Shown: in pieces, positions 4,422 to 25,373 of the stretch
Layout: the number at the start of each line of letters is the position of its first letter
Position numbering within the stretch: the stretch's first letter is position 1
From: Candidatus Multivoradales bacterium
Lineage (GTDB): Bacteria > Acidobacteriota > Thermoanaerobaculia > Multivoradales > JAHEKO01
Assembly: GCA_965248055.1 (NCBI GenBank)
Contig: CBDFIJ010000004.1
Span: 1,376,001-1,440,000, forward strand
Direction: 5' to 3'
DNA length: 64,000 nucleotides
The notes under the pieces: model-generated
What the model was told of the DNA's origin: nothing
Seen by the model: only the letters and a program-made list of their open reading frames with translations
Databases searched by the model: none
Made by a program: the position numbers and the translations under genes

Positions 4422-4486
4422 GACCGCCCGACTCATAGAAGCCGATTACTTGCAAGGTTGGGAACCTACGTTGCGTCTCCATTCCT

Positions 4487-5374: not shown

Positions 5375-5609
5375 CTAATTACCGCTCGGTTTGGGCTGAA
5401 CCGGCACTTAGGAGAGGTATGTCCAATCTGAGTCTCTCCCTGTCTAAGAGCTCGATCCCGGAGTCAGAGTTCCGTTCCGGTGTGATTCCGGCCACCAACT
5501 GGGGAGCGCAGATGCGCCGACAACCGAGCTTCAGGAGGTGCTTCCAGACCTCTCAATAATCGCCTGGGACCTCAGTCAGGTACCTCGGCCCAACTCTTTC
5601 TTCGCACCT

Positions 5610-6101
5610 CTACCTAGAATGCACCATTCCAGAGTCCTTCGATACTGAATCAACTCTGACGTACTCCATGACGAGAGAAACTGACTCCTCTCCCCCAACT
5701 CGAACGGACAAGCCCAACACACACGCATCCAAGTCCTCGAAGAGATCAGCTTCCGAAAGATCGTCCCATCTGATGAAGGCGGACTGAGTTGCACCCCGTT
5801 CGACCACACACCTTCTCTCACACGAACCCTTATGAACACGTGCTTCGGATTTTGCTGTTGAACCGTCAACACGCGCAACTTCGCCGCACCGGTTAGTCAC
5901 AAGTACGTTATGCAAGAGCGGTGGAGGCGAGGGAGCAAAGACAGTAATAGGTTGCCACCGAATGTCTAGGCACTCAGTACTCACCTGGCAATCTACAGAA
6001 GGCTGCCCGGAACAGACCGGACGAAACTCTACCCACCGATCACAACCACAGACTACAAGTAGGACTACGCCCATGGTCCATATCGTCTTTGTCACGGGCA
6101 T
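5610..6101 (-). CDS. Putative lipoprotein immunity protein
   Basis: Hydrophobic N-terminus with lipobox-like VCGC; overlaps the stop of the upstream toxin tip (6092). Confidence 0.6.
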   Translation of the reverse strand: MPVTKTIWTMGVVLLVVCGCDRWVEFRPVCSGQPSVDCQVSTECLDIRWQPITVFAPSPPPLLHNVLVTNRCGEVARVDGSTAKSEARVHKGSCERRCVVERGATQSAFIRWDDLSEADLFEDLDACVLGLSVRVGGEESVSLVMEYVRVDSVSKDSGMVHSR

Positions 6102-6891
6102 GGATTTCCTACTTCACCTAGGACCATTGCAGCGTGTCCAATTGCCTGAGCTTCATATTCGTTGTCAACGTACGCATCCATACCTCTCAACCAAGCCCTG
6201 GTCGACGCTCCTAAGTACCTAGGGGCGAAGGAATAAACACCTCCGGCAAACTCACCGGCTTGATCACTATGAGTCAGTTCGTGGGCCACCAAGAGTGCAC
6301 TAGACTCCAGCTGGTCATAGGCGTCCTTGGCAAGGTAGATATCTGATCCAAGTGTAATCCCTCCCCAGTCCTCTTCTGACATCCCAGGTAGCAGTCCACG
6401 ATGGATCGTAACCGTTGAAAGGTTTATCGAGTAGTACGGCTGGAAAGAAGCCGAATAACAGTCCGGCAATAGCTTACTACCATCTGGATTCTGCTTGTTC
6501 TTCAAGTTTTGACCCCCAATCGTATCTTTGTCGCCAGCATCGTTGACTTGTGTCGGAACACCCACTGGGTTGTTTGAGAAGAAAGATAGGAGGATAGATG
6601 CGGACACCTCGGGCGGGGGAGCCGACCCTTGGATCTCATGGTAATCAGTTGGACCTGCAATCCCGGATGCTATGTCAAGCGCGGCTTCCCTGGAGAGGGC
6701 CACCTGAGAAACGTGGTAAGAAATGGGCTCCAGGCCATTGGGATCAAAGTACGTGATAACACCTCCTCTGGCATACCCATACCGATTCCAACTCCCCCCA
6801 CTTCCAGTATTGCCCAACACAGGGTCGACGCTCATAAACCTCCCTAAGTGGTTCGTATAAAACCTCGCATGCATGTAATCCATCCCAGTAT

Positions 6892-8260
6892 GAGATATAA
6901 CCGAAAGTTGTGTATGAGAGTTTGAAGGCGGCGTATCCTGAGCCCGGTTTTCAAAGCTGGGTTCAATCATCCCAAAAGGAGGATACGCCGTTGAGCAAGA
7001 GTAACGTAGTTTCAATCGATCAAGTAGAACGTCCTGAGGACGCTCTGAGTGAGGTCTTGCGCCGAGGTTCACGGTTGCTTCTTTGCGAAGCAATCGAGGC
7101 AGAGGTGGAGAGTTTTTTGGTTGAGTACCAAGATCAACGTACGGCGGTCGGTCACCGGCGGTTGGTGAGAAACGGCTACATGCCAGAGCGGGAGATCCAG
7201 ACCGGAATCGGCGGCATTTCGGTCAAAGTGCCACGGGTGCGGGATCGCCAGGGTGAGCTTCATTTTCGCTCCAATCTAGTGCCACCGTATCTGCGCCGGT
7301 CCAAGAGCATCGCGGATCTCTTGCCCTGGCTATACTTACGGGGGATTTCTACCGGGGACTTCTCACGAGCTCTGGAAGTTTTGGTGGGCCCTGAAGCGCC
7401 AGGTCTTTCGTCTTCGACGGTGAGCCGCCTCAAACGCGTCTGGGGCCAGGAGTACAGCGAATGGCGGCAGCGCGATCTTTCGTCCAAGCGCTACGTCTAT
7501 GTATGGGCTGACGGCATTTACTGCAAGGCTCGCCTGGATAACGCCAAGCTCTGCTTGCTGGTGTTAATTGGTGCCACTGCGGACGGCAACAAAGAACTGA
7601 TCGCTGTTGAAGACGGTTACCGGGAGAGTGAGGCGTCATGGCTGGAGCTGTTGCGAGGCCTGGAAGCAAGAGGCCTTACATTCGAGCCTAAGATCGCAAT
7701 CGGTGACGGCAATCTGGGTTTCTGGAAGGCTCTGGCTCAGGTGTGGGGAAATACCAAGACCCAGCGCTGCTGGGTCCACAAGACGGCCAACGTCTTGAAT
7801 AAGCTCCCCAAGGCGATCCAGCCCAAGGCCAAGCAGGCAATCCACCAAATCTGGATGGCGCAGACACGTCACGATGCCGAGAGGGCTTTTGATGCATTCC
7901 AGGCAATCTACCAAGCTAAATATCCGAAAGCAGTCCAGTGCTTGGTCAAAGATCGCGTCCAGCTACTCGCTTTCTACGATTTCCCGGCTGAGCACTGGGT
8001 GCATTTGAGGACCACCAACCCAATCGAATCAACTTTTGCTACCGTACGCTTGAGAACCTCCAAAACCCGGGGCTGTCTGTCGCGAGAAACCATGCTCTCG
8101 ATGGTCTTCAAGCTGTGCCAAAGCGCAGAAAAACGATGGCGGAGGCTACAGGGCTACAGGCGCATTGCCGAAGTCGTTGAAGGTCTCCAGTTCGTGGACG
8201 GAGAAAAACAAAAACAGATCGCCGCCTGATGGCTCAATACACAACTTTTGACAATAACTC
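6892..8260 (+). mobile_element. IS256-family element, copy 1 (no target duplication; adjacent Rhs sequence missing)
   Basis: Imperfect terminal IRs gagatataaccgaaagttgtgtat / atacacaacttttgacaataactc. Confidence 0.92.
6991..8229 (+). CDS. IS256-family (Mutator-type DDE) transposase
   Basis: RNGY..VPRVRDR, YVWADGIY, GDG, QRCWVHK, RTTNPIESTF; TTG start after aaggagg. Confidence 0.93.
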   Translation: MSKSNVVSIDQVERPEDALSEVLRRGSRLLLCEAIEAEVESFLVEYQDQRTAVGHRRLVRNGYMPEREIQTGIGGISVKVPRVRDRQGELHFRSNLVPPYLRRSKSIADLLPWLYLRGISTGDFSRALEVLVGPEAPGLSSSTVSRLKRVWGQEYSEWRQRDLSSKRYVYVWADGIYCKARLDNAKLCLLVLIGATADGNKELIAVEDGYRESEASWLELLRGLEARGLTFEPKIAIGDGNLGFWKALAQVWGNTKTQRCWVHKTANVLNKLPKAIQPKAKQAIHQIWMAQTRHDAERAFDAFQAIYQAKYPKAVQCLVKDRVQLLAFYDFPAEHWVHLRTTNPIESTFATVRLRTSKTRGCLSRETMLSMVFKLCQSAEKRWRRLQGYRRIAEVVEGLQFVDGEKQKQIAA

Positions 8261-8461
8261 CCATTGCTACCCCAGGTGGTCATGTTTCCGGAGGCGTCGT
8301 AACCGGCCACTGACAGCCGGTTGGTGTTGGCGTTAACCGCAATGGTGGTGGTTTGACATACCTCCAACATTCGGGTGGCACCTTTCCGGCCCGCACCGGA
8401 CCTCTTTAGAGCACCTACTTAGACATGTCCAACGATTGGTGTCCACCTCTACCAACAAACA

Positions 8462-9091
8462 TCAAGAATCCCAAATCTTGATCGCATCTATCACTCGCCA
8501 ATCACTATCTTCACGTTGCAAAACCACCATCCGTCCAGCTCCGCCTAGCTCAGCCCACTGACGCCCATAGTAAAGCAGCGCCTGACCACCATCACTGCTG
8601 AAGCCGACTCTAGAGAACACGATAATCCCCGCGGAGTCCGGGTAGCGGTCGTAGAACACACTCCAGGAAGGAACGCCTTCAAGCTCGTAGAGGGGAAAGT
8701 GACCGCTGCTGTTGTTCACTAATGTGACACGTGTATCGCTAAAGTGAGATCGATTCAACTTGATTGCCGCCTGGTTTTTTCTCACAAAAGATTCGAAAGT
8801 CGATCGTCGGAGATCAGATACGTGGACAGATAGCCACCCCCAAAGGCTCGACTGATCTTGGACGATGTCTTGCTCTTGAAAGGCCGGATCCATCGTTGTC
8901 TTATTGAATACGACGAGGGTGCTCGCTTCTGCATTTCCTCCGCCGGTAACTGCCCACGTCTTGTCTTGGAAGAGTCGGTTGTAGATTTCATAGTCTCGGA
9001 GGTGCTCATGCGGTACAGGAGCATGGCAAGACATCGCTGCGAAACCAATCGCGACCGAGAAAGATAGACCCAATGCTCGATTTCGCATCAC
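8462..9091 (-). CDS. Putative lipoprotein, probable immunity protein
   Basis: Signal peptide ending AMSC; lies directly downstream of the toxin-tip cassette 9168-9743. Confidence 0.6.
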   Translation of the reverse strand: MMRNRALGLSFSVAIGFAAMSCHAPVPHEHLRDYEIYNRLFQDKTWAVTGGGNAEASTLVVFNKTTMDPAFQEQDIVQDQSSLWGWLSVHVSDLRRSTFESFVRKNQAAIKLNRSHFSDTRVTLVNNSSGHFPLYELEGVPSWSVFYDRYPDSAGIIVFSRVGFSSDGGQALLYYGRQWAELGGAGRMVVLQREDSDWRVIDAIKIWDS

Positions 9092-9167
9092 CCCCCTCTG
9101 TTCGTCTTGAGCTTATTCATTGTGAGTTGTACCTATTTCAGCCCCAAGTGGCAACGTTCCTGTAAGT

Positions 9168-9743
9168 TCAAAAAATACAGGTTGCACAATAACCACCATT
9201 AACACCATGCCATTGACCATTGACGAGTACGCTAGATACACCCCCTCCACTTATATTTGAGAAACCCGACCACAAGCTGTTACCGCCGCCACCGCTGCCT
9301 GGTGCTTCAGGAGGCAGCTGCGTTTCCGACTGTTCGGGCACCGGCTTACTGGGAAAATGGTAATCCCATTCTGGCTCCTCTTCTGGTTTCCATTCTGGTC
9401 CGCAGCCTCCAGTCGATATTCCTTGTTCAAGCAACCAACCGGTTGCGGCCCCTCTGGATATGTCTCCCGATTCCGTCATAATCCGGGCAAGGTCTTGCTC
9501 CATGAATTGATGCTCGTCCCAGTTGTCTGCCCAGGTTCCGGAGAAGATGGCGATTCTCTCGCCTGAGAAGTTATACAAGAAGTACCAGCGGGCACCCTGG
9601 GTCACCATGTTGTTGGCGGTATCGTACTCATAACCATTGGCACCCCAGGAGGTCATGTTGCCGGAGGCGTCGTAGGCAGCGGATGACAACCGATTCGTGT
9701 CTGGATTCACAGCGATGGTGGTAGTTTGACATACCTCCAACAT
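9168..9743 (-). pseudogene. Orphan Rhs fragment with internal deletion fused to a variable tip
   Basis: MLEVCQTTTIAVNPDTN..SGERIA jumps directly to unrelated acidic/Gly-rich sequence; the YMHARFY..DPxG core is absent. Confidence 0.7.
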
Positions 9744-9767
9744 TCGGGTGGCACCTTTCCGCAGTTG

Positions 9768-10385
9768 GCTGGCGCGACCGAACACGCGAGTACCACGCCA
9801 GAGGAGCAGGCAATACGCAGGTATTTATGTGTATCGAACGACTCCACCTAACGCCCCTTCCATGTTGGCGTGATCAAACTACGCTTTGGATGCGACAACG
9901 AGTTCAAGAACTCGCCGACCTAGTCTGTGAAGAGAATTCCGGCCAAATCGTTGGAAGTCTGCCCAATCCCAAACCCACCAAGCGTCCTGCCAGAATCAAG
10001 AGATCCCCAGCTCCACTTTTTCACTGTGCCACCAAGGCAGCTCGCAACGCCCTCTACGAAGCCTACTCCTGGTTTGTTGCCGCCTACAGGGATGCTTGTG
10101 AGCGACTCAAAGCTGGGCACGAAAACGCTACCTTCCCTCCGGGATCGTTTCCACCGCCCAGACCATTCGTTCCTGTTTAGTTGATTCCGTTCCGTTTGGG
10201 TTTTATCGGCGCTTAGGGATTAGTATATCCAGTCCGAGTTTCTCCCCGTCCAAGAGCTGAACCGCTGAGCGAAAGTTCCGTTTCGGTGTGAATGAGATCA
10301 CGAACTTGACGTGTTCAATATATCCCTGATCAGCCCAATCAAGCAATTCTAGATTCTCTCAATAATCGCCTGGGACCTCAGTCAG
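9768..10385 (+). mobile_element. 5'-truncated RAYT copy with type-B 3' tail
   Basis: Near-identical to the 3' half of 4487-5374; ends in a head I site. Confidence 0.88.
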
Positions 10386-10513
10386 CGGCTGGGCTTACCA
10401 AAGCCTGGGGTACCGAGGACTGATAACTCGACTACCTAGATCCTGATGAGTGGCTGGAGCGTCATCGACTCCTACTTAGAGAGACCCAACAACACGCGCT
10501 GCCTTTCTTTGAT

Positions 10514-10590
10514 CACTCAATACCGGGACGCCCCCCACCCGGAAAGAAAAGATGTACCCCTTGACATAACGCCGCCTAATAAGTGGCACC
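10514..10590 (+). repeat. 77-bp end segment with head II site, duplicated at 17219-17295
   Basis: cactcaataccgggacgccccccacccggaaagaaaagatgtaccccttgacataacgccgcctaataagtggcacc is present twice. Confidence 0.9.
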
Positions 10591-10620
10591 CAATCCAATC
10601 AGCTTCATTCTGCTTCACAC

Positions 10621-11358
10621 CTATTTCTCTATCTCCTCCTCACTCTCCTCCCAAGCCTCCAACCACTGAAGTGTCTTTTCAACCTTATGCGTCAAATTCT
10701 CGATTTCATCCTCATCTTCCTCGCCCTCAGGCAGTTCACGAAGCAGTTTCAAAGCGTCGTGGGCGGCAGCTAGAGCCTCGTCGTGGCGCCCCAGATCGTA
10801 GTACGAATAGGCCATCCCGTGGCGGCCTTCGATCCTCACAAATGTCTCCGCGCCGCGCTCGAATGCTTCCCGGAATCCAGCGAGCGCATCTTCTTCGCGG
10901 CCGAGCATCGACAAGGATCCCGCTTCGTAAATCCAGCCCCAAGGTTCGCCTCCCTCTCGCGCCAGCTGGAAGTACGGGAGAGTGACTTCCGGACCCATCT
11001 CCTCTCGAAGATAAATTGCAAACCACAGTAGTAGGTTCGCATCTACACCTTTCATCAGATGGGGAGGACTTGCATAACTAAGCGCCTCTCGAAATTCCCT
11101 TTTCTCAACAAGCAGCCGCAGCATGAACTCCCTCGCCATCGTGCTACTGGGGTCTAGCTTGAGGGCCGCACGATACAACCGCTTGGCCTTTATCTCATTG
11201 CCCATCGCGTTTCGTATCCACCCTCGCCAAGCCAACGACCACGCGTCCCGCCAGCCGAGAAACTCGGCCGCCAGGAGAAAGGCGTGCGAGGTCCGATAGT
11301 GACCGTTTTCGCAAAGCTCCATCGCCCTGTCGCGAGCCGCCTTCAGGAAATTGTACAT
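10621..11358 (-). CDS. Tetratricopeptide-repeat protein, probable immunity protein
   Basis: TPR-like helices (AKRLYRAALKLDP, LGREEDALAGFREA, LGRHDEALAA); downstream of a toxin tip. Confidence 0.7.
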   Translation of the reverse strand: MYNFLKAARDRAMELCENGHYRTSHAFLLAAEFLGWRDAWSLAWRGWIRNAMGNEIKAKRLYRAALKLDPSSTMAREFMLRLLVEKREFREALSYASPPHLMKGVDANLLLWFAIYLREEMGPEVTLPYFQLAREGGEPWGWIYEAGSLSMLGREEDALAGFREAFERGAETFVRIEGRHGMAYSYYDLGRHDEALAAAHDALKLLRELPEGEEDEDEIENLTHKVEKTLQWLEAWEESEEEIEK

Positions 11359-11439
11359 ATGTCTAGTGCTCTCTTTTCGGGCCCGGAAAGGGAAATCCAG
11401 CTTGCCCGTTGACTAAAAACTATCAACTGTTGGACCCCC

Positions 11440-12828
11440 TCACTCACTCACACACGGGATGATTGACCCGTTTGCCTGGTCCGCAGAACCCCTTGACTTC
11501 CCGAGTTGACTGTAATCCAGAGGGGGAATCGGAGGAAACTTTGGCGGATCTGGACCTCCATGACTACCTTTGAATCGAATGTTTAACGGTGTCGTGCCTA
11601 GGCCAGTTCGGTAATGACCGGGAAACAGAGTGGGATCTCCGCTGTTTTCCGGAAGAGGCCTGGTGGTGTCTGGGCCGCCTTTCCCAGGTGAGTGCGCGGG
11701 CCGACTAGAGGGGTTTCTTCGGTCCCTAGTGAGGAAGTCCCAGATAGCTGCCGCGCTCATGACTATTAAGGCAGCCTCTCCAAGCGGCGTCGGCTCTACT
11801 ATTGCAACACCGACTGTTGCCGCCAGACCTAAGCCTGAACCTCCATCCTCGCAATCCGGCGGTCCAAGCGGTCCCCCACCCCCGCCGCGGCCACCGCCGT
11901 CTGCATTGGCGCCACCTAGATTCTGGCCGCCCTGGAGATTACCTGTCGCTGCCGGTCCGGGGCTCTCAGGTGGGTCGTCTTGTCCCCATGCATCTTGGTC
12001 CGAAGCTTCGTACCGATCACTCCCATCATCATTATTCACAACAACTGTAGTACCATCGCCGCCGCCGTCGTCAGGACACCAATATGTAGAAGTCCCGTCG
12101 CCATTGTCCGCGATTTTCATACAATTGGCAGCTACACGGCCATCAGGATCGAAATGTGTTACCGGCCTTCCCCCAACATACGACTAACGATTCCAGATAT
12201 TCGGACCAGCCCCCTGCATTACCGGATCCACCCCCATAAACCTCCCCAAATGCGAGGTATAAAACCTCGCATGCATGTAATCCATCCCGGTATCCCCATC
12301 CCTCTCATGCCCAGTAAACTTCATGATGCCGTTGCCAGCCGCGGTGATCTCCTGTCCATAGGGTAGATATTCATGCTCCGACACCTTGTTGCCAAGGTTA
12401 TCGGTCACAAGGCGAATACTCCCCAAGTGGTCAGTATGGTAATGCTGCTTGGTACCGCTTCCATCCTCAGTCCCCAACAACCTCCTACCCATCCAGATGT
12501 AATCCATCTCATGGCTCCAGTTGCCGGATTGGTCTTCACCGACGAGCTTAAAGGTAGATAACACCTGGTTGGAGGGGCCGCGGATGGTCCAATCGACCTC
12601 GCGGGTAGCAATCGAGCCCTGCCAGTCAATGGTGGCGATTCTCTCGCCTGAGAAGTTATACAAGAAGTACCAGCGGGCACCCTGGGTCACCATGTTGTTG
12701 GCGGTGTCGTACTCATAACCGTTAGCACCCCAGGAGGTCATGTTGCCAGAAGCATCATATGCAGCGGATGACAACCGGTTGGTGTCGGGATTCACAGCGA
12801 TGGTGGTAGTTTGACATACCTCCAACAT
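11440..12828 (-). pseudogene. Orphan Rhs core + Gly/Pro-rich tip with an in-frame TAG
   Basis: Core YHTDHLGS..FTGHERD..YMHARFY; reads WNR*SYVGGRPVTHFDPDG through the TAG at 12184-12186 in the same frame as ORF 11440..12120. Confidence 0.82.
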
Positions 12829-12868
12829 TCGGGTGGCACCTTTCCGCAGAGCACTGCAGTGTGGCACC

Positions 12869-13007
12869 TCAATCCAATCAGCGGTTCCGGCACCACAATC
12901 ACAGAAGTTCCATTTTCGGCGTAATCTCTGCCACCAACTAGGCACTCTGAAGCACCTACGCCGACCCCAATGCGTGATCCTAGGCCTCCAAATAATCGCC
13001 TGGCACC
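12869..13007 (+). repeat. ~139-bp RAYT-tail-like segment (type C), duplicated at 24415-24553
   Basis: Two matching copies; shares agttcc..ttcggcgt..gccaccaact with RAYT tails; ends in a head I site. Confidence 0.85.
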
Positions 13008-13048
13008 ATTATCTCCTCTATCTCCTCTATCTCCTCTATCTCCTGTTT

Positions 13049-15545: not shown

Positions 15546-16950
15546 CCCATCTCCCCGCTGCACCGGATCCACACTCATCATCCTCCCCAAGTGGCTGGTA
15601 TAAAACCTCGCATGCATGTAATCCATGCCGGTATCCGCATCCCTCTCATGGCCGGTAAACTTCATGATGCCGTTGCCAGCCGCAGTGATCTCCTCGCCAT
15701 AGGGTAGATATTCATGCTCAGAGATCTTGTTGCCCAGATCATCGGTCACTAACCTGACACTTCCTAGATGATCGGTATGGTAATGCTGTTTGGTTCCCGA
15801 TCCATCCTGGGTTCCTAAGAGTCTCCTGCCCATCCAGATGTAGTCGATTTCATGGGTCCAGTTGCCCGATTGGTCTTCACCGACCAGCTTAAAGGTAGAT
15901 AACACCTGATTGCTGGGTCCGCGAATGGTGTAGTCGACTTCACGGGTGGCGATGCTCCCTTGCCAGTCGATGGTGGCGACGCGTTCCCCGGCAAAGTTGT
16001 AGATGAAGTACCAGCGACCATCTTGGCTGACCATGTTGTTGGCGGTGTCGTACTCATAACCGTCGCTGCCCCAAGTGGTCATGTTGCCAGAAGCATCATA
16101 TGCAGCGGATGACAACCGGTTGGTGTCTGGATTCACTGCGATGGTTGTGTGCTGCGCACTCTGACCAGGAGCCCAAGTTGAAACCTTGGTCATATTGCCA
16201 AAGACATCGTAGGTGTAGTCCTGTTGCGTGGTGCCTCCCGTAGGATCTCGGACAAACGCTTGGGTCAAGCGGTTGATCTTGTCGTAGCGATAGAGGTCGG
16301 GAGCGATCTGGTTGGCCAATGGATCGGTAACGACAATGGTCACGATTTTAGTCTGTGCGTAGGTACTGTCACTCACGGTCAGGGTGACGTTGTAGTTTCC
16401 TGCCGAGGCGTAGGTATGCGAGGTACTCAAACCCGAGGCCCCGGTGCCGCCGCCGAAATCCCAGGTGGAGCTCAAAGCCTGACCGTTGGGGTCGCTTGAG
16501 CAGTTGCCGTCAAAAGTGATGTTCTGGCCTACTGTGGCCGAGGTCGACGACGAGCTAAAGCACGCGCTGGGCGCTGCATTGGAGCCCGCGGCTGGGGCCT
16601 TGAACTCAACTTTCTTGATCACCACTGTCGTCGGATCGCCGTTGGTATGCCATTTGGTGAACTGTAGCCTCAAGTCGGCGTAATTGGTCAGGGCCGCTGC
16701 TACGGTGCTGGATAGGCTATAAGTATGGCGTCTCATCACCGTGTCCAGGGTGATGGTGGTCCACTTCAGTACTGTGTTATTCGGTGCCATGATGTAGAGA
16801 CGCACACCTTTGCTGGTGCCGTTTTCAACATTGCCGGTGAGGTACACCTTGTGGCCGCTGTGAACGCCGGGATCGGTCAACCCAGCCATGCGCACCCGGA
16901 AACTGTCGGTGACACCACTCGACTTTTGCGATTTGGTGACGTTGGTGTCG

Positions 16951-17193
16951 TCATCGGAGCTTCTCAGCAAAGGCGTGAAGCATCAACGCAAAGAAGGTCA
17001 GTCCGGCACCCACATTGCCCCACTCCCCTTCTCTAACCGCAAATCCGATGATAGCCCCAAAAACTAGTCCGATCAGAGCGAGTCCTACGGTCCAGCGCTG
17101 CCTCCTGCCAATTCTTACTGTAACCGCGAGAAGAACGCTAAAGCCAACCCCTGTTAAGACCAACTCCCATATTCGTTGCCAATCAAGTTTCAT
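16951..17193 (-). CDS. Small membrane protein, orphan immunity candidate (3' end probably truncated)
   Basis: Three hydrophobic segments; abuts the start of the duplicated Rhs segment. Confidence 0.55.
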   Translation of the reverse strand: MKLDWQRIWELVLTGVGFSVLLAVTVRIGRRQRWTVGLALIGLVFGAIIGFAVREGEWGNVGAGLTFFALMLHAFAEKLR

Positions 17194-17328
17194 CTACTGC
17201 TCACAATGAGGTGGACCCCACTCAATACCGGGACGCCCCCCACCCGGAAAGAAAAGATGTACCCCTTGACATAACGCCGCCTAATAAGTGGCACCATTAT
17301 CTCCTCCATTATCTCCTCTATCTCCTGA

Positions 17329-17580
17329 TCAGTTCCGCCATTTGGCCTCCAAAAGAAAGACGAGCATCGATATGACCACGATGATTCCGACAGAGAGAAG
17401 AATGCGTGTCGGAGTTTCGAGGTTCAGGCTCCGAGAAAGCTCAGAAACAAAGATCCCAGACAACATGCTGTTAAGAAAGATGCTCATCTTATTATCCATC
17501 CCCGTCAATCTTGGCAATATGACTAACGAGAGACAGGCCACAACGAACGAAACACCGACCATCTGCATGACTATTTTCAT
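17329..17580 (-). CDS. Small membrane protein, probable immunity protein
   Basis: Three hydrophobic segments; ATGA overlap with the toxin stop at 17577. Confidence 0.65.
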   Translation of the reverse strand: MKIVMQMVGVSFVVACLSLVILPRLTGMDNKMSIFLNSMLSGIFVSELSRSLNLETPTRILLSVGIIVVISMLVFLLEAKWRN

Positions 17581-18956
17581 TGAACCGCGCCCGCTGCTGC
17601 TCTGCAGACAAGGTCTCCAGAAACAACAATGCCGCTACCCATTGACATGCCAGCGGCCGCTCCGAATACTGCCCCGCCTGCTTCAACAGTCGCAGCGTAC
17701 ATGCCGGCACCTCCGTACCAAGCCGCTGTCGCAACGCCTGCCCAACAGGCTCCATAAACCACCGTCGAGCGTGAATGTACGTCCCCCAGCACTTCGAACT
17801 CATGCCGGTCGTTGCGAACAACTGCTTCCCAAGCATTGTTCTCATTCCATCCCCTCCATGTACCATTCCCGCTGTTCTCTGCAGACCCGAATGATATCTC
17901 TGGTGGAGTCGTAGCTGTTGTCTCATTAGCCGTTATCGTGAGGCCCTCTGAAAAAGTACCATCGGAGTCCTTCGTGACACCTGTACTAGTGGAGCTGATG
18001 GTAGTGGTGCTCTTGGTTTTGCCGTCTGTTATCTTGATTGTGCTTGCCCCGGTACTTAGATCGGTTGTAATAGTCTCCGTAGATCCATCTGCATAGGTTA
18101 TGGTCGTGGTTTCGTGAGTTGGTTGGTAGATCGCATCCAAATTCGCATCGAACAATGCCGCGCCAACGTCACCCACGGCCTCGCCGGTCCCAATGCCCGT
18201 ACAAGTTCCCGATAGAAGTCCGTAAATAATTGCCGCCCCACTCCCCGACAATGCACAGTGAGCCATCGCCCTGCCATCCGGATCTACACCTCCAATCGGA
18301 TTTCCCGCCACATAAGAATACGCATTCCAAACCCCATCTCCTCGATTCACCGGATCCACTCCCATCAGTCTCCCCAAATGCGAGGTGTAGTACCTAGCAT
18401 GCATGTAATCCAAGCCGGTATCCGCATCTCTTTCATGCCCGGTGAATTTCATGATGCCATTACCCGCCGCTGTGATCTCCTGCCCATAGGGTAGATATTC
18501 ATGCTCTGAGACTTTGTTGCCAGAGCTATCGGTCACCAGCCGGATGCTCCCCAGATGGTCAGTATGGTAATGCTGCTTGGTACCTGAGCCATCTTCCGTT
18601 CCCAGGAGCTTCCTGCCCATCCAGATGTAGTCCATCTCGTGGGACCAATTACCGGATTGGTCTTCACCGACGAGCTTAAAGGTAGATAACACCTGGTTGG
18701 AGGGGCCGCGGATGGTCCAATCGACCTCGCGGGTAGCAATCGAGCCCTGCCAGTCAATGGTGGCGATTCTCTCGCCTGAGAAGTTATACAAGAAGTACCA
18801 GCGGGCACCCTGGGTCACCATGTTGTTGGCGGTATCGTACTCATAACCATTGGCACCCCAGGAGGTCATGTTGCCGGAGGCGTCGTAGGCAGCGGATGAC
18901 AACCGATTCGTGTCTGGATTCACAGCGATGGTGGTAGTTTGACATACCTCCAACAT
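17577..18956 (-). CDS. Intact orphan Rhs core + Gly/Ala-rich hydrophobic (possibly membrane-active) tip
   Basis: Complete RHS repeat-associated core, DPDG cleavage motif, 459-aa open frame starting inside a head III site. Confidence 0.85.
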   Translation of the reverse strand: MLEVCQTTTIAVNPDTNRLSSAAYDASGNMTSWGANGYEYDTANNMVTQGARWYFLYNFSGERIATIDWQGSIATREVDWTIRGPSNQVLSTFKLVGEDQSGNWSHEMDYIWMGRKLLGTEDGSGTKQHYHTDHLGSIRLVTDSSGNKVSEHEYLPYGQEITAAGNGIMKFTGHERDADTGLDYMHARYYTSHLGRLMGVDPVNRGDGVWNAYSYVAGNPIGGVDPDGRAMAHCALSGSGAAIIYGLLSGTCTGIGTGEAVGDVGAALFDANLDAIYQPTHETTTITYADGSTETITTDLSTGASTIKITDGKTKSTTTISSTSTGVTKDSDGTFSEGLTITANETTATTPPEISFGSAENSGNGTWRGWNENNAWEAVVRNDRHEFEVLGDVHSRSTVVYGACWAGVATAAWYGGAGMYAATVEAGGAVFGAAAGMSMGSGIVVSGDLVCRAAAGAVQ

Positions 18957-18977
18957 TCGGGTGGCACCTTTCCGGCC

Positions 18978-19466
18978 GCCAAATCGTTGGAAGTCTGCCC
19001 AATCCCAAACCCACCAAGCGTCCTGCCAGAATCAAGAGATCCCCAGCTCCACTTTTTCACTGTGCCACCAAGGCAGCTCGCAACGCCCTCTACGAAGCCT
19101 ACTCCTGGTTTGTTGCCGCCTACAGGGATGCTTGTGAGCGACTCAAAGCTGGGCACGAAAACGCTACCTTCCCTCCGGGATCGTTTCCACCGCCCAGACC
19201 ATTCGTTCCTGTTTAGTTGATTCCGTTCCGTTTGGGTTTTATCGGCGCTTAGGGATTAGTATATCCAGTCCGAGTTTCTCCCCGTCCAAGAGCTGAACCG
19301 CTGAGCGAAAGTTCCGTTTCGGCGTGAATGAGATCACGAACTTGACGTGTTCAAGATAGCCGTGATCAGCCCAATCAAAGAATCCTAGATTCTCTCAATA
19401 ATCGCCTGGAACCTCAGTCCAGCTGCCCGAGCAGACCTCTTAATAATCGCCTGGGACCTCAGTCAG
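18978..19466 (+). mobile_element. 5'-truncated RAYT copy with type-B tail and two head I sites
   Basis: Matches the 3' end of RAYT; begins right after the head III site 18939-18968. Confidence 0.88.
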
Positions 19467-19767
19467 CTTCCCAAGCATTATTCTCATTCCATCCCCTCCA
19501 TGTACCATTCCCGCTGTTCTCTGCAGACCCGAATGATATCTCTGGTGGAGTCGTAGCTGTTGTCTCATTAGCCGTTATCGTGAGGCCCTCTGAAAAAGTA
19601 CCATCGGAGTCCTTCGTGACACCTGTACTAGTGGAGCTGATGGTAGTGGTGCTCTTGGTTTTGCCGTCTGTTATCTTGATTGTGCTTGCCCCGGTACTTA
19701 GATCGGTTGTAGTAGTCTCCGTAGATCCATCTGCATAGGTTATGGTCGTGGTTTCGTGAGTTGGTTG
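19467..19767 (-). pseudogene. Duplicated internal fragment of the 17577-18956 toxin tip
   Basis: QPTHETTTITYADG..WNENNAWEA nearly identical to ~17825-18125; bounded by site motifs on both sides. Confidence 0.88.
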
Positions 19768-19820
19768 CACCTTTCCGGCCGAGGTATCGCCGCCAAATAA
19801 TCGCCTGGCACCACTATCTG

Positions 19821-20720
19821 GGTCTCAGTACCCGACGCTCAGCGCATGGCGCAATTCGTCGGCTACCTCAACAGCAATCTGGGACGCGAGTTGGGCAGAA
19901 TGCATGGATGGAACGGGAAGTTTTGGGATCGCCGTTATCAGGCCATCGTAGTCAGCGAAGAGGAAGCGGCTCAAGTGGCTCGACTTAAATACCTGTTGAG
20001 CCAAGGAGTCAAAGAGGGCTTAGTTAGACGTCCCACTGACTGGCCAGGTCTCCATGCTGCCAAGTTACTCCTGGCAAGAAATAGCACTCTCACAGGCCGC
20101 TGGCGCGACCGAACACGCGAGTACCACGCCAGAGGAGCAGGCAATACGCAGGTATTTATGTGTATCGAACGACTCCACCTAACGCCCCTTCCATGTTGGC
20201 GTGATCAAACTACGCTTTGGATGCGACAACGAGTTCAAGAACTCGCCGACCTAGTCTGTGAAGAGAATTCCGGCCAAATCGTTGGAAGTCTGCCCAATCC
20301 CAAACCCACCAAGCGTCCTGCCAGAATCAAGAGATCCCCAGCTCCACTTTTTCACTGTGCCACCAAGGCAGCTCGCAACGCCCTCTACGAAGCCTACTCC
20401 TGGTTTGTTGCCGCCTACAGGGATGCTTGTGAGCGACTCAAAGCTGGGCACGAAAACGCTACCTTCCCTCCGGGATCGTTTCCACCGCCCAGACCATTCG
20501 TTCCTGTCTAGCTAATTACCGCTCGGTTTGGGCTGAACCGGCACTTAGGAGAGGTATGTCCAATCTGAGTCTCTCCCTGTCTAAGAGCTCGATCCCGGAG
20601 TCAGAGTTCCGTTCCAGTGTGATTCCGGCCACCAACTGGGGAGCGCAGATGCGCCGACAACCGAGCTTCAGGAGGTGCTTCCAGACCTCTCAATAATCGC
20701 CTGGGACCTCAGTCAGTCAG
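19821..20720 (+). mobile_element. 5'-truncated RAYT copy (lacks the HUH motif) with type-A tail
   Basis: Starts just after the HYH codons; ORF 19846..20511; tail matches 5375-5579. Confidence 0.88.
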
Positions 20721-20760
20721 CTCAGGCGGCTCCTATCTGCCTTCCCGCACAATTCCAGAC

Positions 20761-21294: not shown

Positions 21295-21306
21295 AAGGAT
21301 TCAGCT

Positions 21307-21785
21307 CTAGGGGTCACCATCAAACGCCTTCCCGATCCCATTCCAGATTATCATCTTAGCCTTCCCCCAGCGCGAAGTCGGCGATAGGAGTTCGTCCGCG
21401 TCAGGAGCAACGCCTTTTGCGTATTTTAGTCCCCTCCCCGCCTTTCCGCTCATCTTCACGAGGTACTTCGCTCTAGCAATCTTCGCAGCTGAACGTACCT
21501 TCCCTCCGGGTAGAACGAAGGTTGCCAGCTCGCCCAGTCCCTCGGCTATTTCAGTCTGTCCATCAAAGTGGTTAATTCCGCTAGAGGCGCCGCAGCCCAA
21601 TATGTTGTCGCCAAGACAGACGCCGCCAGAAGCATTCGTCCTTACCCTTGTAGTTATAACAGTGAGTTCTTCGTTCACTGAGAATGACCCAGCGTCAAAT
21701 TTCACTCCCGAGGATTCAGCAGAATCCACCCAAGCCCAATATGCTTTGACTTCTTCAGGGCTTGCCCCCGCAAGAAACTCAGCGC
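21307..21785 (-). pseudogene. 5'-truncated Rhs toxin tip
   Basis: NEELTVIT motif and basic C-terminus; cut by the RAYT left end at 21786. Confidence 0.6.
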
Positions 21786-22937
21786 TCCCCTAAGTGCCAG
21801 CTGATTATTTGCAAGGTTGGGAACCTACGTTGCGTCTCTATCCCCATGAGCCGCCGACTTCGATTCATCCCAGCCGGTGGGGCGCTGGTAGAAATCACCT
21901 GCCGTACCTTTCAAGGGCGTTACCTCCTCAAGCCGTCTCCCGCTGTCAATCGGTGCATCCTGGGGATTCTCGGGCGGGCTCAGAGACTCTACCCCACCGA
22001 GGTCCATGCCTTTGTATTCATGTCGAATCACTACCATCTCTTGGTCTCAGTACCCGACGCTCAGCGCATGGCGCAATTCGTCGGCTACCTCAACAGCAAT
22101 CTGGGACGCGAGTTGGGCAGAATGCATGGATGGAACGGGAAGTTTTGGGATCGCCGTTATCAGGCCATCGTAGTCAGCGAAGAGGAAGCGGCTCAAGTGG
22201 CTCGACTTAAATACCTGTTGAGCCAAGGAGTCAAAGAGGGCTTAGTTAGACGTCCCACTGACTGGCCAGGTCTCCATGCTGCCAAGTTACTCCTGGCAAG
22301 AAATAGCACGATCACAGGCCGCTGGCGCGACCGAACACGCGAGTACCACGCCAGAGGAGCAGGCAATACGCAGGTATTTATGTGTATCGAACGACTCCAC
22401 CTAACGCCCCTTCCATGTTGGCGTGATCAAACTACGCTTTGGATGCGACAACGAGTTCAAGAACTCGTCGACCTAGTCTGTGAAGAGAATTCCGGCCAAA
22501 TCGTTGGAGATCCGCCCAATCCCAAACCCACCAAGCGTCCTGCCAGAATCAAGAGATCCCCAGTTCCACTTTTTCACTGTGCCACCAAGGCAGCTCGCAA
22601 CGCCCTCTACGAAGCCTACTCCTGGTTTGTTGCCGCCTACAGGAATGCTTGTGAGCGACTCAAAGCTGGGCACGAAAACGCCGCCTTCCCTCCGGGATCG
22701 TTTCCACCGCCCAGACCATTCGTTCCTGTTTAGTTGATTCCGTTCCGTTTGGGTTTTATCGGCGCTTAGGGATTGGTATATCCAGTCCGAGTTTCTCCCC
22801 GTCCAAGAGCTAAACCGCTGAGTGAAAGTTCCGTTTCGGCGTGAATGAGATCACGAACTTGACGTGTTCAAGATAGCCGTGATCAGCCCAATCAAAGAAT
22901 CCTAGATTCTCTCAATAATCGCCTGGAACCTCAGTCC
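21786..22937 (+). mobile_element. Complete RAYT-like module, copy 2
   Basis: Left end ctcccctaagtgccagctgattatt and right end aataatcgcctggaacctcagtc form an imperfect inverted pair. Confidence 0.85.
21846..22733 (+). CDS. RAYT-like HUH/Y1 transposase, copy 2
   Basis: 295 aa, a few substitutions relative to 4487-5374. Confidence 0.88.
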   Translation: MSRRLRFIPAGGALVEITCRTFQGRYLLKPSPAVNRCILGILGRAQRLYPTEVHAFVFMSNHYHLLVSVPDAQRMAQFVGYLNSNLGRELGRMHGWNGKFWDRRYQAIVVSEEEAAQVARLKYLLSQGVKEGLVRRPTDWPGLHAAKLLLARNSTITGRWRDRTREYHARGAGNTQVFMCIERLHLTPLPCWRDQTTLWMRQRVQELVDLVCEENSGQIVGDPPNPKPTKRPARIKRSPVPLFHCATKAARNALYEAYSWFVAAYRNACERLKAGHENAAFPPGSFPPPRPFVPV

Positions 22938-23019
22938 AGCTGCCCGAGCAGACCTCTTAATAATCGCCTGGGACCTCAGTCAGTACCCCTTGACACCACG
23001 CCGCCTAATAAGTGGCACC

Positions 23020-23361
23020 TCAGTCAGCAGCACACAAGACGAAGGGCACTCCGGCGAGTACACAAACTACAAGGCCAATACCTGCAACACGACGCACCAA
23101 GCTACCGATCCGAACAAGTCTCGCCCCTAGAGCGTCGTCTTCTGCCCACATTGTATTTGCCGCACCGTCGATGAAATACGCAAATGGAACGAAAGTTCCA
23201 AACAACCATTTTGGGAAATCGCGTTTCTTCTTATATCTGAATAAGAGAACATACACTGCAGCCAACCAAACGGTTATCACAAACAAGAACTGCGTCATCA
23301 TTCCGGCAACGAAGAACACTTGGACTATCCTACATACCATTTCAGTCTCCCTCAGATGCAA
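23020..23361 (-). CDS. Membrane protein, immunity candidate; stop supplied by a site tail
   Basis: Three hydrophobic segments; the TGA is the tca of the tcagtcag tail at 23020. Confidence 0.6.
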   Translation of the reverse strand: MHLRETEMVCRIVQVFFVAGMMTQFLFVITVWLAAVYVLLFRYKKKRDFPKWLFGTFVPFAYFIDGAANTMWAEDDALGARLVRIGSLVRRVAGIGLVVCVLAGVPFVLCAAD

Positions 23362-23364
23362 TAT

Positions 23365-23742
23365 TTACTCACTAGAGCACGGATCACCAATGGTCCCAGA
23401 AGTAGACTCTCCGCTTGCCCATGCCGCACCAGGCGGTCCACCGGTAATGGAGACGGACCAATTGCTTTGACCAGAATAGTTGTCTTTGCTTCTCGTAAAA
23501 CCGACAGGGCCAGCCATCCATAGAGAGGTTGTTTGACTCGATCCTAGCGGTGGGCCGTGGGTGTACTGGATTCCAGCCCCTACCGCAACCCCAATTCCGT
23601 TTCCTTCAGTGCTCCGTCCAGCTAGCCCGCGCGTGCCGGCAGAGCCCTCTAAAGCGGCCCCCTTCCAGAGTCCCCCCGCTGCTGCCGCTACGAATTCAAC
23701 GCTATTATTGCAGTAGATTTCGACAATCTCTTCGAGTACCGC
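23365..23742 (-). pseudogene. Gly-rich toxin tip truncated by IS256
   Basis: Gly/Ala/Ser-rich frame directly upstream of an immunity-like gene; 5' end replaced by the IS left end. Confidence 0.6.
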
Positions 23743-24270
23743 GAGATATAACCAAAAGTTGTGTATGAGAGTTTGAAGGCGGCGTATCCTGAGCCCGGTT
23801 TTCAAAGCTGGGTTCAATCATCCCAAAAGGAGGACACGCCGTTGAGCAAGAGTAACGTAGTTTCAATCGATCAAGTAGAGCGTCCTGAGGACGCTCTGAC
23901 CGAGGTCTTGCGCCGAGGTTCACGGTTGCTTCTTTGCGAAGCAATCGAGGCAGAGGTGGAGAGTTTTTTGGTTGAGTACCAAGATCAACGTACGGCGGTC
24001 GGTCACCGGCGGTTGGTGAGAAACGGCTACATGCCAGAGCGGGAGATCCAGACCGGAATCGGCGGCATTTCGGTCAAAGTGCCACGGGTGCGGGATCGCC
24101 AGGGTGAGCTTCATTTTCGCTCCAATCTAGTGCCACCGTATCTGCGCCGGTCCAAGAGCATCGCGGATCTCTTGCCCTGGCTATACTTACGGGGGATTTC
24201 TACCGGGGACTTCTCACGAGCTCTGGAAGCTTTGGTGGGCCCTGAAGCGCCAGGTCTTTCGTCTTCGACG
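23743..24270 (+). mobile_element. Truncated IS256 (left end + 5' third of transposase)
   Basis: Nearly identical to the 5' part of copy 1; breaks at a RAYT-end segment at ~24271. Confidence 0.92.
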
Positions 24271-24721
24271 GCCCGAGCAGACCTCTTAATAATCGCCTGG
24301 GACCTCAGTCAGAGCGTCACTTCCAGATCTCTCAATAATCGCCTGGAACCTCAGTCACAGTCACCGCCGGGGGAAATCTATCCCTTGACATAACCCCGCC
24401 TAATAAGTGGCACCTCAATCCAATCAGCGGTTCCGGCACCACAATCACAGAAGTTCCATTTTCGGCGTAATCTCTGCCACCAACTAGGCACTCTGAAGCA
24501 CCTACGCCGACCCCAATGCGTGATCCTAGGCCTCCAAATAATCGCCTGGCACCATTATCTCCTCTATCTCCTCTAGCCCGAGCAGACCTCTTAATAATCG
24601 CCTGGGACCTCAGTCAGTAGTAGTCTCCGTAGATCCATCTGCATAGGTTATGGTCGTGGTTTCGTGAGTTGGTTGCACCTTTCCGGCCGAGGTATCGCCG
24701 CCAAATAATCGCCTGGCACCA

Positions 24722-24829
24722 CTATCTCATTTCGTCGATACATAAAGGGAAAATGTCCACCCCGGGATCACAGCCCGAAGCAGCCATCGCCAGAATCACT
24801 ATTGAACTCAAAGACATTTTTCGCAGCAT
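24722..24829 (-). pseudogene. Truncated lipoprotein immunity gene (not in the ORF track)
   Basis: Translates MLRKMSLSSIVILAMAASGCDPGVDIFPLCIDEMR*; lipobox ASGC; resembles the 5610-6101 N-terminus; stop comes from the site tail. Confidence 0.6.
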
Positions 24830-24859
24830 TGTCCTATGCTCCATTATCAAACCGGCTAC

Positions 24860-25030
24860 TTAGCCGTCTCCACATGGGTCACCGACGGCCTTGTCCGTCA
24901 TCTCCTCGACAGCATAGGCCTCCTGCTCCTGATGGATAGCAGCATAGGCTTGGTCGCCGGTCATTCCGGCGGCAACACCATCGAGCCAATGGTCGCCATA
25001 GTCCGACAAGAACGAGACAAGGCCCCCGAA
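24860..25030 (-). pseudogene. Last ~55 codons of another toxin tip
   Basis: PFGGLVSFLSDYGDHWLDG..GDPCGDG* between a RAYT remnant and a lipoprotein remnant. Confidence 0.5.
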
Positions 25031-25373
25031 CGGGATCGTTTCCACCGCCCAGACCATTCGTTCCTGTTTAGTTGACTCCGTTTCGTTTCGGGATTTTGTC
25101 GGCGCATAGGGATTGGTATATCCAGTCCGAGTTTCTCCCCGTCCAAGAGCTGAACCGCTGAGTGAAAGCTCCGTTTCGGCGTGAATATGATCGCAACTTA
25201 ACGTGTTCAATATATCCGTGATCAGCCTGATCAAGGAATTCTAGATTCTCTCAATAATCGCCTGGGACCTCAGTCACCTATTCCGGCCACCAACTGGGGA
25301 GCGCAGATGCCCCGACAACCGAGCCTCGGAGGTGCTTCCAGACCTCTCAATAATCGCCTGGGACCTCAGTCAG
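25031..25373 (+). mobile_element. RAYT 3' remnant with diverged type-B tail plus partial type-A tail
   Basis: Last 41 nt of the RAYT gene; head I sites at 25253 and 25349. Confidence 0.85.

Follow-up and report, generated by a model that had tools for sequence, protein, structure and literature searches.

Repeated TGGNACC sites in an Acidobacteriota Rhs locus: ends of Y1 transposase elements probably invaded by an RNA-guided IS1111-type element

The 64,000-nt stretch analysed here, referred to as the window, covers positions 1,376,001 to 1,440,000 of contig CBDFIJ010000004.1 in the assembly GCA_965248055.1 of Candidatus Multivoradales bacterium (Acidobacteriota). It carries a large rhs gene followed downstream, toward lower coordinates, by an array of orphan toxin/immunity modules that share the core sequence of the main gene (Table 1). 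These modules are interleaved with copies and pieces of a gene for a 295-aa Y1 transposase and with short repeated sites composed of a head, the core heptamer TGGNACC and a tail. A first-pass annotation had interpreted the sites as the footprint of strand exchange at a fixed position of the core between several related end types, heads II and III possibly being ends of further REP-associated tyrosine transposases (RAYTs; REP, repetitive extragenic palindromic sequence). The analysis, which throughout is one of sequence comparison, attributes the fixed exchange point to one guided insertion sequence (IS) inserting one-way, rather than to RAYT paralog ends that are mutually compatible.

Between positions 5500 and 25400 TGGNACC occurs 32 times on the plus strand and six times on the minus strand, compared to an expectation of 6.0 per strand derived from the genome-wide density. 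Repeated head-core-tail sites account for 25 of the 32 plus-strand occurrences and the remaining seven are ordinary coding occurrences; the site pattern at 5555-25373 is beyond chance. Head I (AATAATCGCCTGG) was found at 16 sites within 5555-25373, every one on the plus strand, of which 12 continue with [G/A]ACC and TCAGTC, two with CACC and ATTATCTCCTC (tails at 13008 and 24554) and two with CACC and ACTATCT (tails at 19813 and 24721). The latter four sites constitute subtype I', in which CCA and not CTC or CTT precedes, CACC is always present and the tails ATTATCT and ACTATCT agree at six of seven positions. Head II (CTAATAAGTGGCACC / CTAATAAGTGG) and head III (CATTCGGGTGGCACC / CATTCGGGTGG, then TTTCCG) have four sites each in the window, all on the plus strand. 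The tails of head II are CAATCCAATCAG at 10591, ATTATCTCCTC at 17296, TCAGTCAG at 23020 and TCAATCCAATCAG at 24415, and all four head III sites have in common one ancestral junction with Rhs sequence. Heads II and III share the geometry TTGACA-N17-TGGCACC, which was considered as a promoter and rejected by reading, TGGCAC not being a -10 box and the GC at the -12 position of a sigma-54 promoter being absent. In addition, a headless CACCTTTCCGGCC follows directly after ...gagttggttg at 19768 and 24676. Comparison of the window with itself revealed that 12861-13029 equals 24407-24575 (169 nt, 100% identity) and 19709-19819 equals 24617-24727 (111 nt, 100% identity), so that the pairs 13008/24554, 19813/24721 and 19768/24676 each go back to one event that was copied once. 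The sites, heads and tails listed in the first-pass annotation were all recovered at their positions, including the four tails of head II, the headless fusion of the head III tail onto gagttggttg and the geometry common to heads II and III.

Table 1. Positions of the Y1 and IS110-type elements, repeated sites, Rhs modules and IS256-family elements in the window.
Feature	Position	Strand	Remarks
Y1 copy 1	4440-5579, gene 4487-5374	+	right end head I-TGGGACC (5565-5571)-TCAGTCAG; left tip missing
Y1 copy 2, complete	21793-22940, gene 21846-22733 (295 aa)	+	left end AGTGCCA-GCTGATTATT at 21793
Y1 copy 2, right end	core 22924-22930	+	head I-TGGAACC-TCAGTCC
Left-truncated Y1 copy (from aa 160)	9768-10386	+	right end head I-TGGGACC (10371-10377)-TCAGTCAG
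Further left-truncated Y1 copies	18978-19423, 19810-20716, 25031-25276, 25280-25373	+	BLAST, tblastn
42-nt solo right-end unit GCCCGAG...AATAATCGCCTGGGACCTCAGTCAG	19425-19466; 22942-22983; 24271-24312; 24576-24617	+	100% identical
Subtype I' core CCAAATAATCGCC-TGGCACC-A[T/C]TATCTC	13001-13007; also 19806-19812, 24547-24553, 24714-24720	+	
Head III-TGGCACC-TTTCCGG	8345-8391, core 8376-8382	+	on the minus strand leads straight into Rhs fragment
Other head III cores with identical leader	9749-9755, 12834-12840, 18962-18968	+	
Headless CACCTTTCCGGCC joined to orphan-toxin fragment	19768-19780; copy 24676-24688	+	full core minus one G
Site IV, ...GCACTGCAGTG-TGGCACC-TCAATCCAATCAG	core 12862-12868	+	unoccupied counterpart of site at 24408
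IS110-type remnant	10378-10590	+	left-end-like piece 10378-10403 (20/26 matches) and last 190 nt of right end; TGGCACC 10584-10590
IS110-type right-end fragment, head II, 77-81 nt	17219-17295	+	TGGCACC 17289-17295, then tail ATTATCTCC
IS110-type right-end fragment, head II, ~38 nt	22983-23019	+	core 23013-23019, then TCAGTCAG
IS110-type right-end fragment, head II, ~40 nt	24376-24414	+	core 24408-24414
Main Rhs gene, 2035 aa	25837-31944	-	Pfam RHS_repeat, PKD, Ig domains
Orphan Rhs C-terminal module and small downstream ORF	17577-18956 and 17329-17580	-	
Other orphan modules	12184-12945 with 10621-12120; 9168-9785 with 8462-9091; 6092-7093 with 5610-6101; 15537-16970		
Orphan leaders with head III	8345-8391, 9718-9764, 12803-12849, 18931-18977	-	
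IS256-family IS inside orphan toxin	6892-8260, tnp 6910-8229	+	Pfam Transposase_mut; NCBIfam IS256, 321 bits vs 150
IS256-family IS, second copy	14178-15545	-	
IS256-family fragment, 529 nt	23743-24271		

The Y1 gene explains where most of these sites come from. Copy 2 matches Pfam Y1_Tnp (PF01797) with 37.5 bits against a cut-off of 23, and its translation contains, by reading, the HYH motif ...SNHYHLLV...; copy 1 also matches Y1_Tnp, is 95.6% identical to copy 2 and is syntenic with the sole gene between the same flanks in G001, a genome of the same genus. A tblastn search of the genome gave 19 rows, comprising nine full-length and eight partial copies and two weak rows for one distant homolog, with the paralogs being 63-67% identical. 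A typical paralog element consists, from flank to flank, of GGTNCCA or a one-base variant, CCCGAAT..., about 40 nt, the ATG and gene, about 200-280 nt and ...A[A/T]TCGCC-TGGNACC. GGTNCCA (or one mismatch) between the flank and the ATG, TGGNACC before the distal flank, or both, were at least partly present in 13 of the 13 loci displayed. The left end, 5'-GGTNCCA-[C/G][C/G]CGA[A/T]T..., and the right end, ...A[A/T]TCG[C/G][C/G]-TGGNACC-3', form an imperfect inverted repeat with the heptamer as the outermost conserved part, and the tail is a 7-13-nt outer arm after the heptamer that belongs to the Y1 terminus. The tail is also seen as part of the repeated unit in G266, which represents a different family of the order, where the core is succeeded by TATTTGG(G) both in RAYT copies and at IS junctions. 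The same end architecture recurs in G001 and G266 and in several of the 21 displayed homologs from Acidobacteriota and other metagenome-assembled genomes with 28-53% identity (e.g., L029, L034, L041). TGGNACC is shown by these comparisons to be the outer tip of the imperfect inverted ends of a multi-copy Y1 (HUH) transposase family related to RAYT/IS200. Head I with TCAGTCAG forms the right end of the Y1 element that the window itself carries. I', IV and V are solo termini belonging to sister Y1 subfamilies, as head III probably is too. For head III the last 14 nt equal Y1 left ends, whereas TTGACATACC is identical, at the same register, to IS110-type right ends; ungapped identity favours neither family. 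The ends GGTNCCA...TGGNACC are thereby defined for a widespread, undescribed-looking group of 295-aa Y1 transposase elements.

Head I, subtype I' included, occurs at 18 sites genome-wide, and a loose terminus pattern gave 92 match rows in the genome, with some sites listed two or three times and many being chance or coding matches. A short hairpin 5' of head I was noted, judged by reading, in both tail variants. Elements of the IS200/IS605 family have no terminal inverted repeats, carry sub-terminal hairpins on one strand and insert 3' of a fixed tetra- or pentanucleotide. The left flanks of the Y1 elements often read ...CC[A/T]AATA, and at the loci inspected no consistent target-site duplication or fixed flanking tetranucleotide was found. 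The Y1 protein scores 53.9 bits against the RAYT profile NF047646 (cut-off 80) and 22.8 bits against the IS200 transposase profile NF033573 (cut-off 55). RAYTs are described, in the accessible parts of two reports, as typically single-copy with more than 100 REPs (10.1101/119735; PMC2817692). The elements studied here resemble RAYT/REP(IN) systems in having a Y1 HUH gene flanked by short inverted repeats, seen in this genome, G001, G266 and distant homologs, and in solo repeats that are scattered and clustered, but differ from them, as far as these sources go, in that there are nine full-length and eight partial genes with tens of termini and not a single gene copy with more than 100 REP/REPIN repeats. 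With a score under the curated cut-off, multiple gene copies and a small number of repeats, they are not RAYTs in the strict sense. A 111-116-nt repeat with five copies of 98-99% identity (window 4334-4444; G000:C4 683433, 1144155, 1487918, 2105560) directly adjoins Y1 copy 1 on its left side and is also found after the right end of a paralog.

Head II has a different origin. Its longest copy runs leftward into a 338-aa open reading frame (ORF) of the IS110 family, with matches to PF01548 (DEDD_Tnp_IS110, 6.8e-18), PF02371 (Transposase_20, 1.1e-19) and the NCBIfam model NF033542 'IS110 family RNA-guided transposase' (204.9 bits against a cut-off of 140). The gene stops about 400 nt before TGGCACC with a non-coding region downstream, and in relatives 110-165 nt lie upstream of the gene. 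The other seven copies of head II are right-end fragments of 515, 206, 190, 98, 81, 40 and 38 nt, and all copies terminate at the identical base. By the transposase matches and the position of the non-coding region, head II is shown to be no RAYT end but the right end of an element that belongs to the IS110 family and has IS1111 architecture. As to sub-terminal inverted repeats, usually 11-13 bp, a 10-bp pair without mismatch (TAGAAGGCTC / GAGCCTTCTA) is present in one relative family, just TAGGCGG / CCGCCTA in the nearest relatives, and the left end in this genome is degenerate. Its TTGACA would fit the -35 half of the circle-junction promoter known for the IS family from the available part of PMC12288879. 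The tail ATTATCTCCTCTA resembles the left end of the IS, TG-ATGATCCTCTAG, yet is offset from it by GCACC. At G000:C4 3288431-3289800 (L001/L008) an IS256-like element has inserted some 20 nt 5' of the start codon of the IS110-type gene and is accompanied by a direct repeat (...CCACAAAGGA) of roughly 9-11 bp; an IS3-family orfA lies just outside the left end of the IS110-type element.

The heads differ in how strictly they are linked to a tail. Genome-wide, head I is followed by TCAGTC at 14 of 14 sites (two of them outside the window), subtype I' by A[T/C]TATCT at all four sites (two independent) and head III by TTTCCG at all four, while head II stands before seven different tails at eight sites and head V (...CATCTCATC) before three at three. 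Heads I, I' and III each retain a single tail and V does not, and the cross-head pairings in the window are all due to head II, with the headless CACCTTTCCGGCC junction in addition. This strict linkage speaks against free exchange of heads and tails across the core and leaves the proposed cross-compatibility of several RAYT end types unsupported. What survives of that proposal is that the sites are related mobile-element ends with one fixed junction position at the core. An exchange in or just 5' of CACC comes close to what is seen for head II, with the junction between TG and GCACC, but not as mutual exchange among RAYT ends. The idea that heads II and III are ends of other RAYT paralogs is right for the heptamer, which is the tip of such ends, and wrong for head II with its IS110/IS1111-type right end. 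Oriented one-way insertion of a guided IS into Y1 ends explains most of the pattern.

Where the IS inserts can be seen in its relatives, which were found at E <= 1e-80 in 25 of 300 genomes of the order. At 7 of 29 IS110-type loci the sequence immediately upstream holds a Y1 gene, or the C-terminal part of one, in the same orientation. By pattern search the left end, which begins TGA[T/G][G/A][A/C]TC..., was located in 17 of the relatives' 34 loci. Five of these 17 are G266 copies in a different, REP-like hairpin target; they form a sister subfamily (L096-L100) with the left flanks ...GCCCTGAAAGGGC-N-ATTTGAA[T/G]AGCC^ (^ marks the junction), which may be a case of natural retargeting. At least seven other left flanks end like Y1 heads (...AATGTTCGGC^, ...CCAATCGCC^, ...AGAATGCCC^), and the right end, located in 8 of the 17, has the tip ...TTGAC-N17-19...TAATGGG^, then [T/C]GGCAC[C/A] and a tail. 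In G266, in which the Y1 terminus is of the type TATTTGGG, an empty site in the 3' tail of a Y1 copy (L103) reads ...cgctgagtcggc-TGGCACC-tatttggg and the occupied site of a sister copy (L102/L074) reads ...cgtcgggtcggc^TGATGATCC...IS...TAATGGG^TGGCACC-tatttgggg; the IS therefore lies between head and heptamer, with TG common to both junctions. The window contains an occupied and an unoccupied site that are identical from G^TGGCACC-TCAATCCAATCAG on, following head II at 24407 and head IV at 12861. From the empty and occupied sites of the relative together with the identity of 12861-13029 and 24407-24575, the head II junction can be placed, as judged by alignment, between TG and GCACC. Oriented insertion at one sequence without target duplication is thus seen by comparison at the G266 sites, at least seven left flanks and the window block.

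A candidate guide lies about 20-30 nt after the stop codon of the transposase gene, where a loop ...NNNNAGGTGC[T/C]GG... is enclosed in a stem, recognised by eye, that varies in sequence between families. Read as its reverse complement, the 9-mer of the loop gives the right junction GCACCTNNN. The candidate guide was recognised once the relatives were aligned, a k-mer search on this genome alone having been undecided. Of 26 IS copies tried 24 were scored, for the right-hand match alone. Complementarity to the own junction was 9/9 in 5 of 24 copies and at least 8/9 in 13 of 24, compared to 17 and 96, respectively, of 552 pairings of guides with the junctions of other copies. Guide and core also change together: GGTTCC is paired with GGAAC (L076), GGAGC with GCTCC (L073), CAACTTGA with TCAAGTTG (L085), TTGTGGTG with CACCACAA (L087) and ACAAGTGCC with GGCACTTGT (L081). 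Complementarity and covariation of loop and junction suggest that the non-coding region gives rise to an RNA, a putative seekRNA or bridge RNA, which selects the target. Covariation in the stem (GACTCGAGGCCGC...GCGGCCTCGAGTC versus GGTGGGAGGCAGGG...CCCTTGCCTCTCACC) was seen by eye, unscored, in an alignment of 18 non-coding regions. The computed fold of this 18-row alignment, in which one row (L004:9930-10070) is mis-registered, gave 0 pairs, and a permissive Rfam search of the IS locus, a second locus and window positions 4000-26000 gave no match. The 24 guide-target pairs of the relatives, with changes on both sides, offer material for studying natural drift of seekRNA/bridge-RNA specificity.

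Taken together, the comparisons make it probable that Y1 termini were invaded by a guided IS1111-type element whose copies subsequently decayed. The sites would then be mobile-element termini and not a dedicated recombination system, within what is presumably an IS-laden orphan-toxin array downstream of the Rhs gene. The IS110-type element would insert one-way into a Y1 terminus between head and TGGCACC, as is shown in the relatives and probable for the window, with an RNA from the non-coding region presumably picking the target by pairing of the loop NNNNAGGTGC with GCACCTNNN. Such an insertion would part the head of the terminus from its tail, so that the IS right end now fronts the tail, which would account for the seven different tails of head II. 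Later, deletions starting at neighbouring termini may have reduced the IS copies to right-end stubs. Apparent combinatorial recombination would in this case be the signature of RNA-guided IS1111-type insertion into the conserved ends of another family, which is worth recognising in other scans.

Homing of IS1111-type elements to the ends of another transposon is already known, and what is added here is the Y1 terminus as target, together with an unusually clear set of guide-target pairs. IS4321/IS5075 are IS1111-type elements homing to Tn21-family ends, according to a title cited in PMC11187229. They are alike in being IS1111-type with oriented insertion into the ends of another transposon family, in the non-coding region after the gene and possibly in sub-terminal inverted repeats. 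As far as that source indicates, the targets there are Tn3-family ends, in contrast to the Y1 (RAYT/IS200-like) ends with the junction TG within TGGCACC deduced here from sequence alone. For IS1111-type elements in general, the available part of the same article places the non-coding region after the gene, describes a seekRNA with matches to either strand of the target and names REPs and attC sites as targets, with ISPa11 as a REP-targeting IS110-family element (PMC11187229). ISPpu9 and ISPpu10 insert in REPs with 'modular transposition', in which the end types A, A', B and B' recombine at one dinucleotide and yield mixed modules and tandem right-end modules, as given in the accessible portion of PMC12288879. 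In analogy, the target here is a short repeat tied to a Y1 transposase, the exchange would occur at an invariant dinucleotide and, as for ISPpu9/ISPpu10, several end types would recombine at it. The differences from the systems as described in these excerpts are that multi-copy, IS-like Y1 elements provide the target with their termini, in place of a high-copy REP, and, in comparison to ISPpu9/ISPpu10, that the right-end fragments are ragged on the left side and lack a recognisable left box.

Several observations weigh against invasion by a guided IS as the full explanation. Seven of the eight head II copies in the genome are right-end-only, and a junction of head, TG and left end was not found for the head II fragments, the 26-nt piece at 10378-10403 excepted; the only copy of the IS110-type left end found elsewhere in the genome is at C4 3.2898 Mb. 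At the single full transposase gene, an IS256-like insertion interrupts the left end and the guide is mutated, so that there is no sign of present activity of the IS110-type element. The resident guide GAAAGGTGC (copy at C4 1.491 Mb) complements GCACCTTTC, the core and tail of head III (core and TTTC), at 9/9 positions and the window head II junctions at just 5-7/9, and among the relatives 7 of 24 junctions reach at most 6/9, with about a third matching little past the core. Furthermore, head II with TCAGTCAG has the core TGGCACC, while 14 of 14 type I sites carry G or A at this position, so that, if the exchange is at TG, its target was not an ordinary type I site. The head II insertions of the window are off-cognate, made by lost variants, or of other origin. 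Lastly, the headless CACCTTTCCGGCC junction, the 42-nt solo units and the truncated Y1 copies are left unaccounted for by the IS110 element.

These latter structures follow a pattern of their own. Left truncation with an intact right end is far commoner among Y1 copies than the reverse (in G266, eight full-length copies stand against at least nine C-terminal fragments among 27 matches), and left-truncated copies often lie directly after the core and tail of another terminus, which results in tandem arrays. Further left-truncated copies are at G000:C4 2373131-2373874, 66336-66561 and 68779-68923, in L024, L077 and L092 and in G266, and the right-end-anchored arrangement after another terminus was found in this genome, G001 (L024), G266 and G299. 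IS110-type right ends are likewise found in tandem, as 206-nt and 98-nt copies at C4 1145572-1145886 and as a 326-nt repeat in L077. Each of the 42-nt solo units lies between unrelated truncated sequences. Several junctions of truncated copies and solo units show microhomology, and no recurrent motif that might act as a pseudo-left end was found at the left boundaries of truncated copies. At G000:C4 66300-66340 (minus strand) a degenerate site, in which head I is cut after CGCCTG and followed by TCACC-CCACCACCACCACCAATCCAATCC and then by TCAGTCAG at the end of a small ORF, combines pieces of two tail types. One possibility, regarded as doubtful, is that the Y1 transposase nicks at the termini and that these act as fixed breakpoints, with rearrangements pinned on one side and free on the other that build Rhs arrays. 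This would yield the right-end-anchored tandem copies of the four genomes, reshuffle orphan modules and supply a start codon. If true, this RAYT/IS200-like family would generate copies in a one-ended manner for which no description among Y1 transposons is known, and would shape polymorphic-toxin arrays, the guided IS being parasitic on the ends. The excess of right-end-anchored truncated copies is in any case beyond known mechanisms, as are the recurrent termini at the starts of Rhs orphan modules.

A mosaic formed by ordinary homologous or illegitimate recombination, slippage and deletion at short repeats, with no site-specific enzyme involved, is considered unlikely. Short repeats are available in this IS-dense and presumably non-essential region (the 7-nt core and shared head segments of 13-20 nt), microhomologies were noted (CAGT at 10378, TTCCGGCC at 18965-18990 versus the Y1 gene, ATCT at 19813), and the exact duplications of 169 and 111 nt as well as the three IS256-family copies or fragments that cut through modules would fit. 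However, a core of 7 nt is too short for RecA-type exchange, all eight head II copies break at exactly one base, and the same junction recurs in other genera together with a matching guide.

Improbable, too, is that the Y1 transposase itself cuts at the heptamer and rejoins termini across subfamilies, the ends being cross-compatible and the segments between direct cores being cassettes. The heptamer is the sole element common to all termini, and all 25 array sites have one orientation, as a single-strand cut-and-join enzyme would require. Such an enzyme would also suit the truncated copies directly after another terminus in four genomes, the three independent occurrences of the 42-nt unit between unrelated truncated sequences and the head II junctions that misfit the resident guide and lack left-end partners. 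Against it stands that across the genome heads I, I' and III each keep to their own tail and that each swap in the window involves an IS110-type end or is imprecise, the headless junction being one G short. Moreover, most boundaries of duplicated blocks are located after tails or at microhomologies and not in the core, and the left boundaries of truncated copies have no recurring motif.

In integrons, attC sites with GTTRRRY-type cores in an imperfect palindrome bound the gene cassettes; the sites of the window resemble them as direct repeats at module boundaries in which variable arms flank a short conserved core and head and tail can come from different neighbours, but differ in the core TGGNACC, in having no paired inverse core in the sites read and in that the arms are transposon ends. 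An integron-like system for Rhs orphan toxins, with modules delimited by direct GGTNCCA sites that also give the translation start, is hardly credible, since GGTGCCA on both sides of modules on the Rhs strand (e.g., 18968 to 17289, 12840 to 10584), the leaders with in-frame ATG and the G001 array described below are countered by the findings that no cassette was found in two different contexts in the two genomes compared, that the four leaders share one junction and so possibly reflect a single event, and that a general Pfam scan of 26 window ORFs, with no search aimed at tyrosine recombinases, identified only IS-encoded recombinases and no IntI-type integrase.

Rhs loci consist of a main rhs gene followed by orphan C-terminal toxin/immunity modules that keep core homology, and they are IS-rich. 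The locus described here differs in that orphan modules begin, in two species, at a Y1-type terminus and not at an arbitrary point. Four orphans open with the identical 32-nt leader GGTGCCACCCGAATGTTGGAGG... on the minus strand, with coding parts about 84% alike. The leader holds an in-frame ATG, as seen for ORF 17577-18956, with GGAAAGG from the tail before it, which suggests that the orphans may be translated on their own. In the G001 Rhs array L025 (G001:C1:268000-286500) six TGGCACC termini, at 7967, 12583, 12634, 13729, 13746 and 16282, are all antisense to rhs, and two orphans, which begin at Rhs residues ~1035 and ~1133, have their starts 16-22 nt past a site. A solo head I adjoins a second Rhs-like locus of the genome studied here. 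With two genomes the association of Rhs modules and termini is too thin for a rule, and a literature search found no paper tying Rhs orphans to a tyrosine transposase. Comparison of window 4200-33100 with G001:C2:414956-423396 revealed that the flanks of the region are about 3.4 kb apart in G001 with only the homologous Y1 gene between them; the Rhs island of about 28 kb is therefore extra in the genome studied here, where it follows directly on the syntenic Y1 copy at its right end.

On the minus strand the tail TCAGTCAG reads CTGACTGA and provides the stop codon for the ORFs 23020-23361 and 19459-19770 (a 103-aa fragment); CTGACTGA together with head I on this strand gives stops in all three frames. 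Elsewhere in the assembly, the contigs C1-C3 of G000 (14.8, 16.7 and 28.4 kb) have a G+C content of 39-43%, compared to 57% for the chromosome, and may represent plasmids, phage or foreign contigs.

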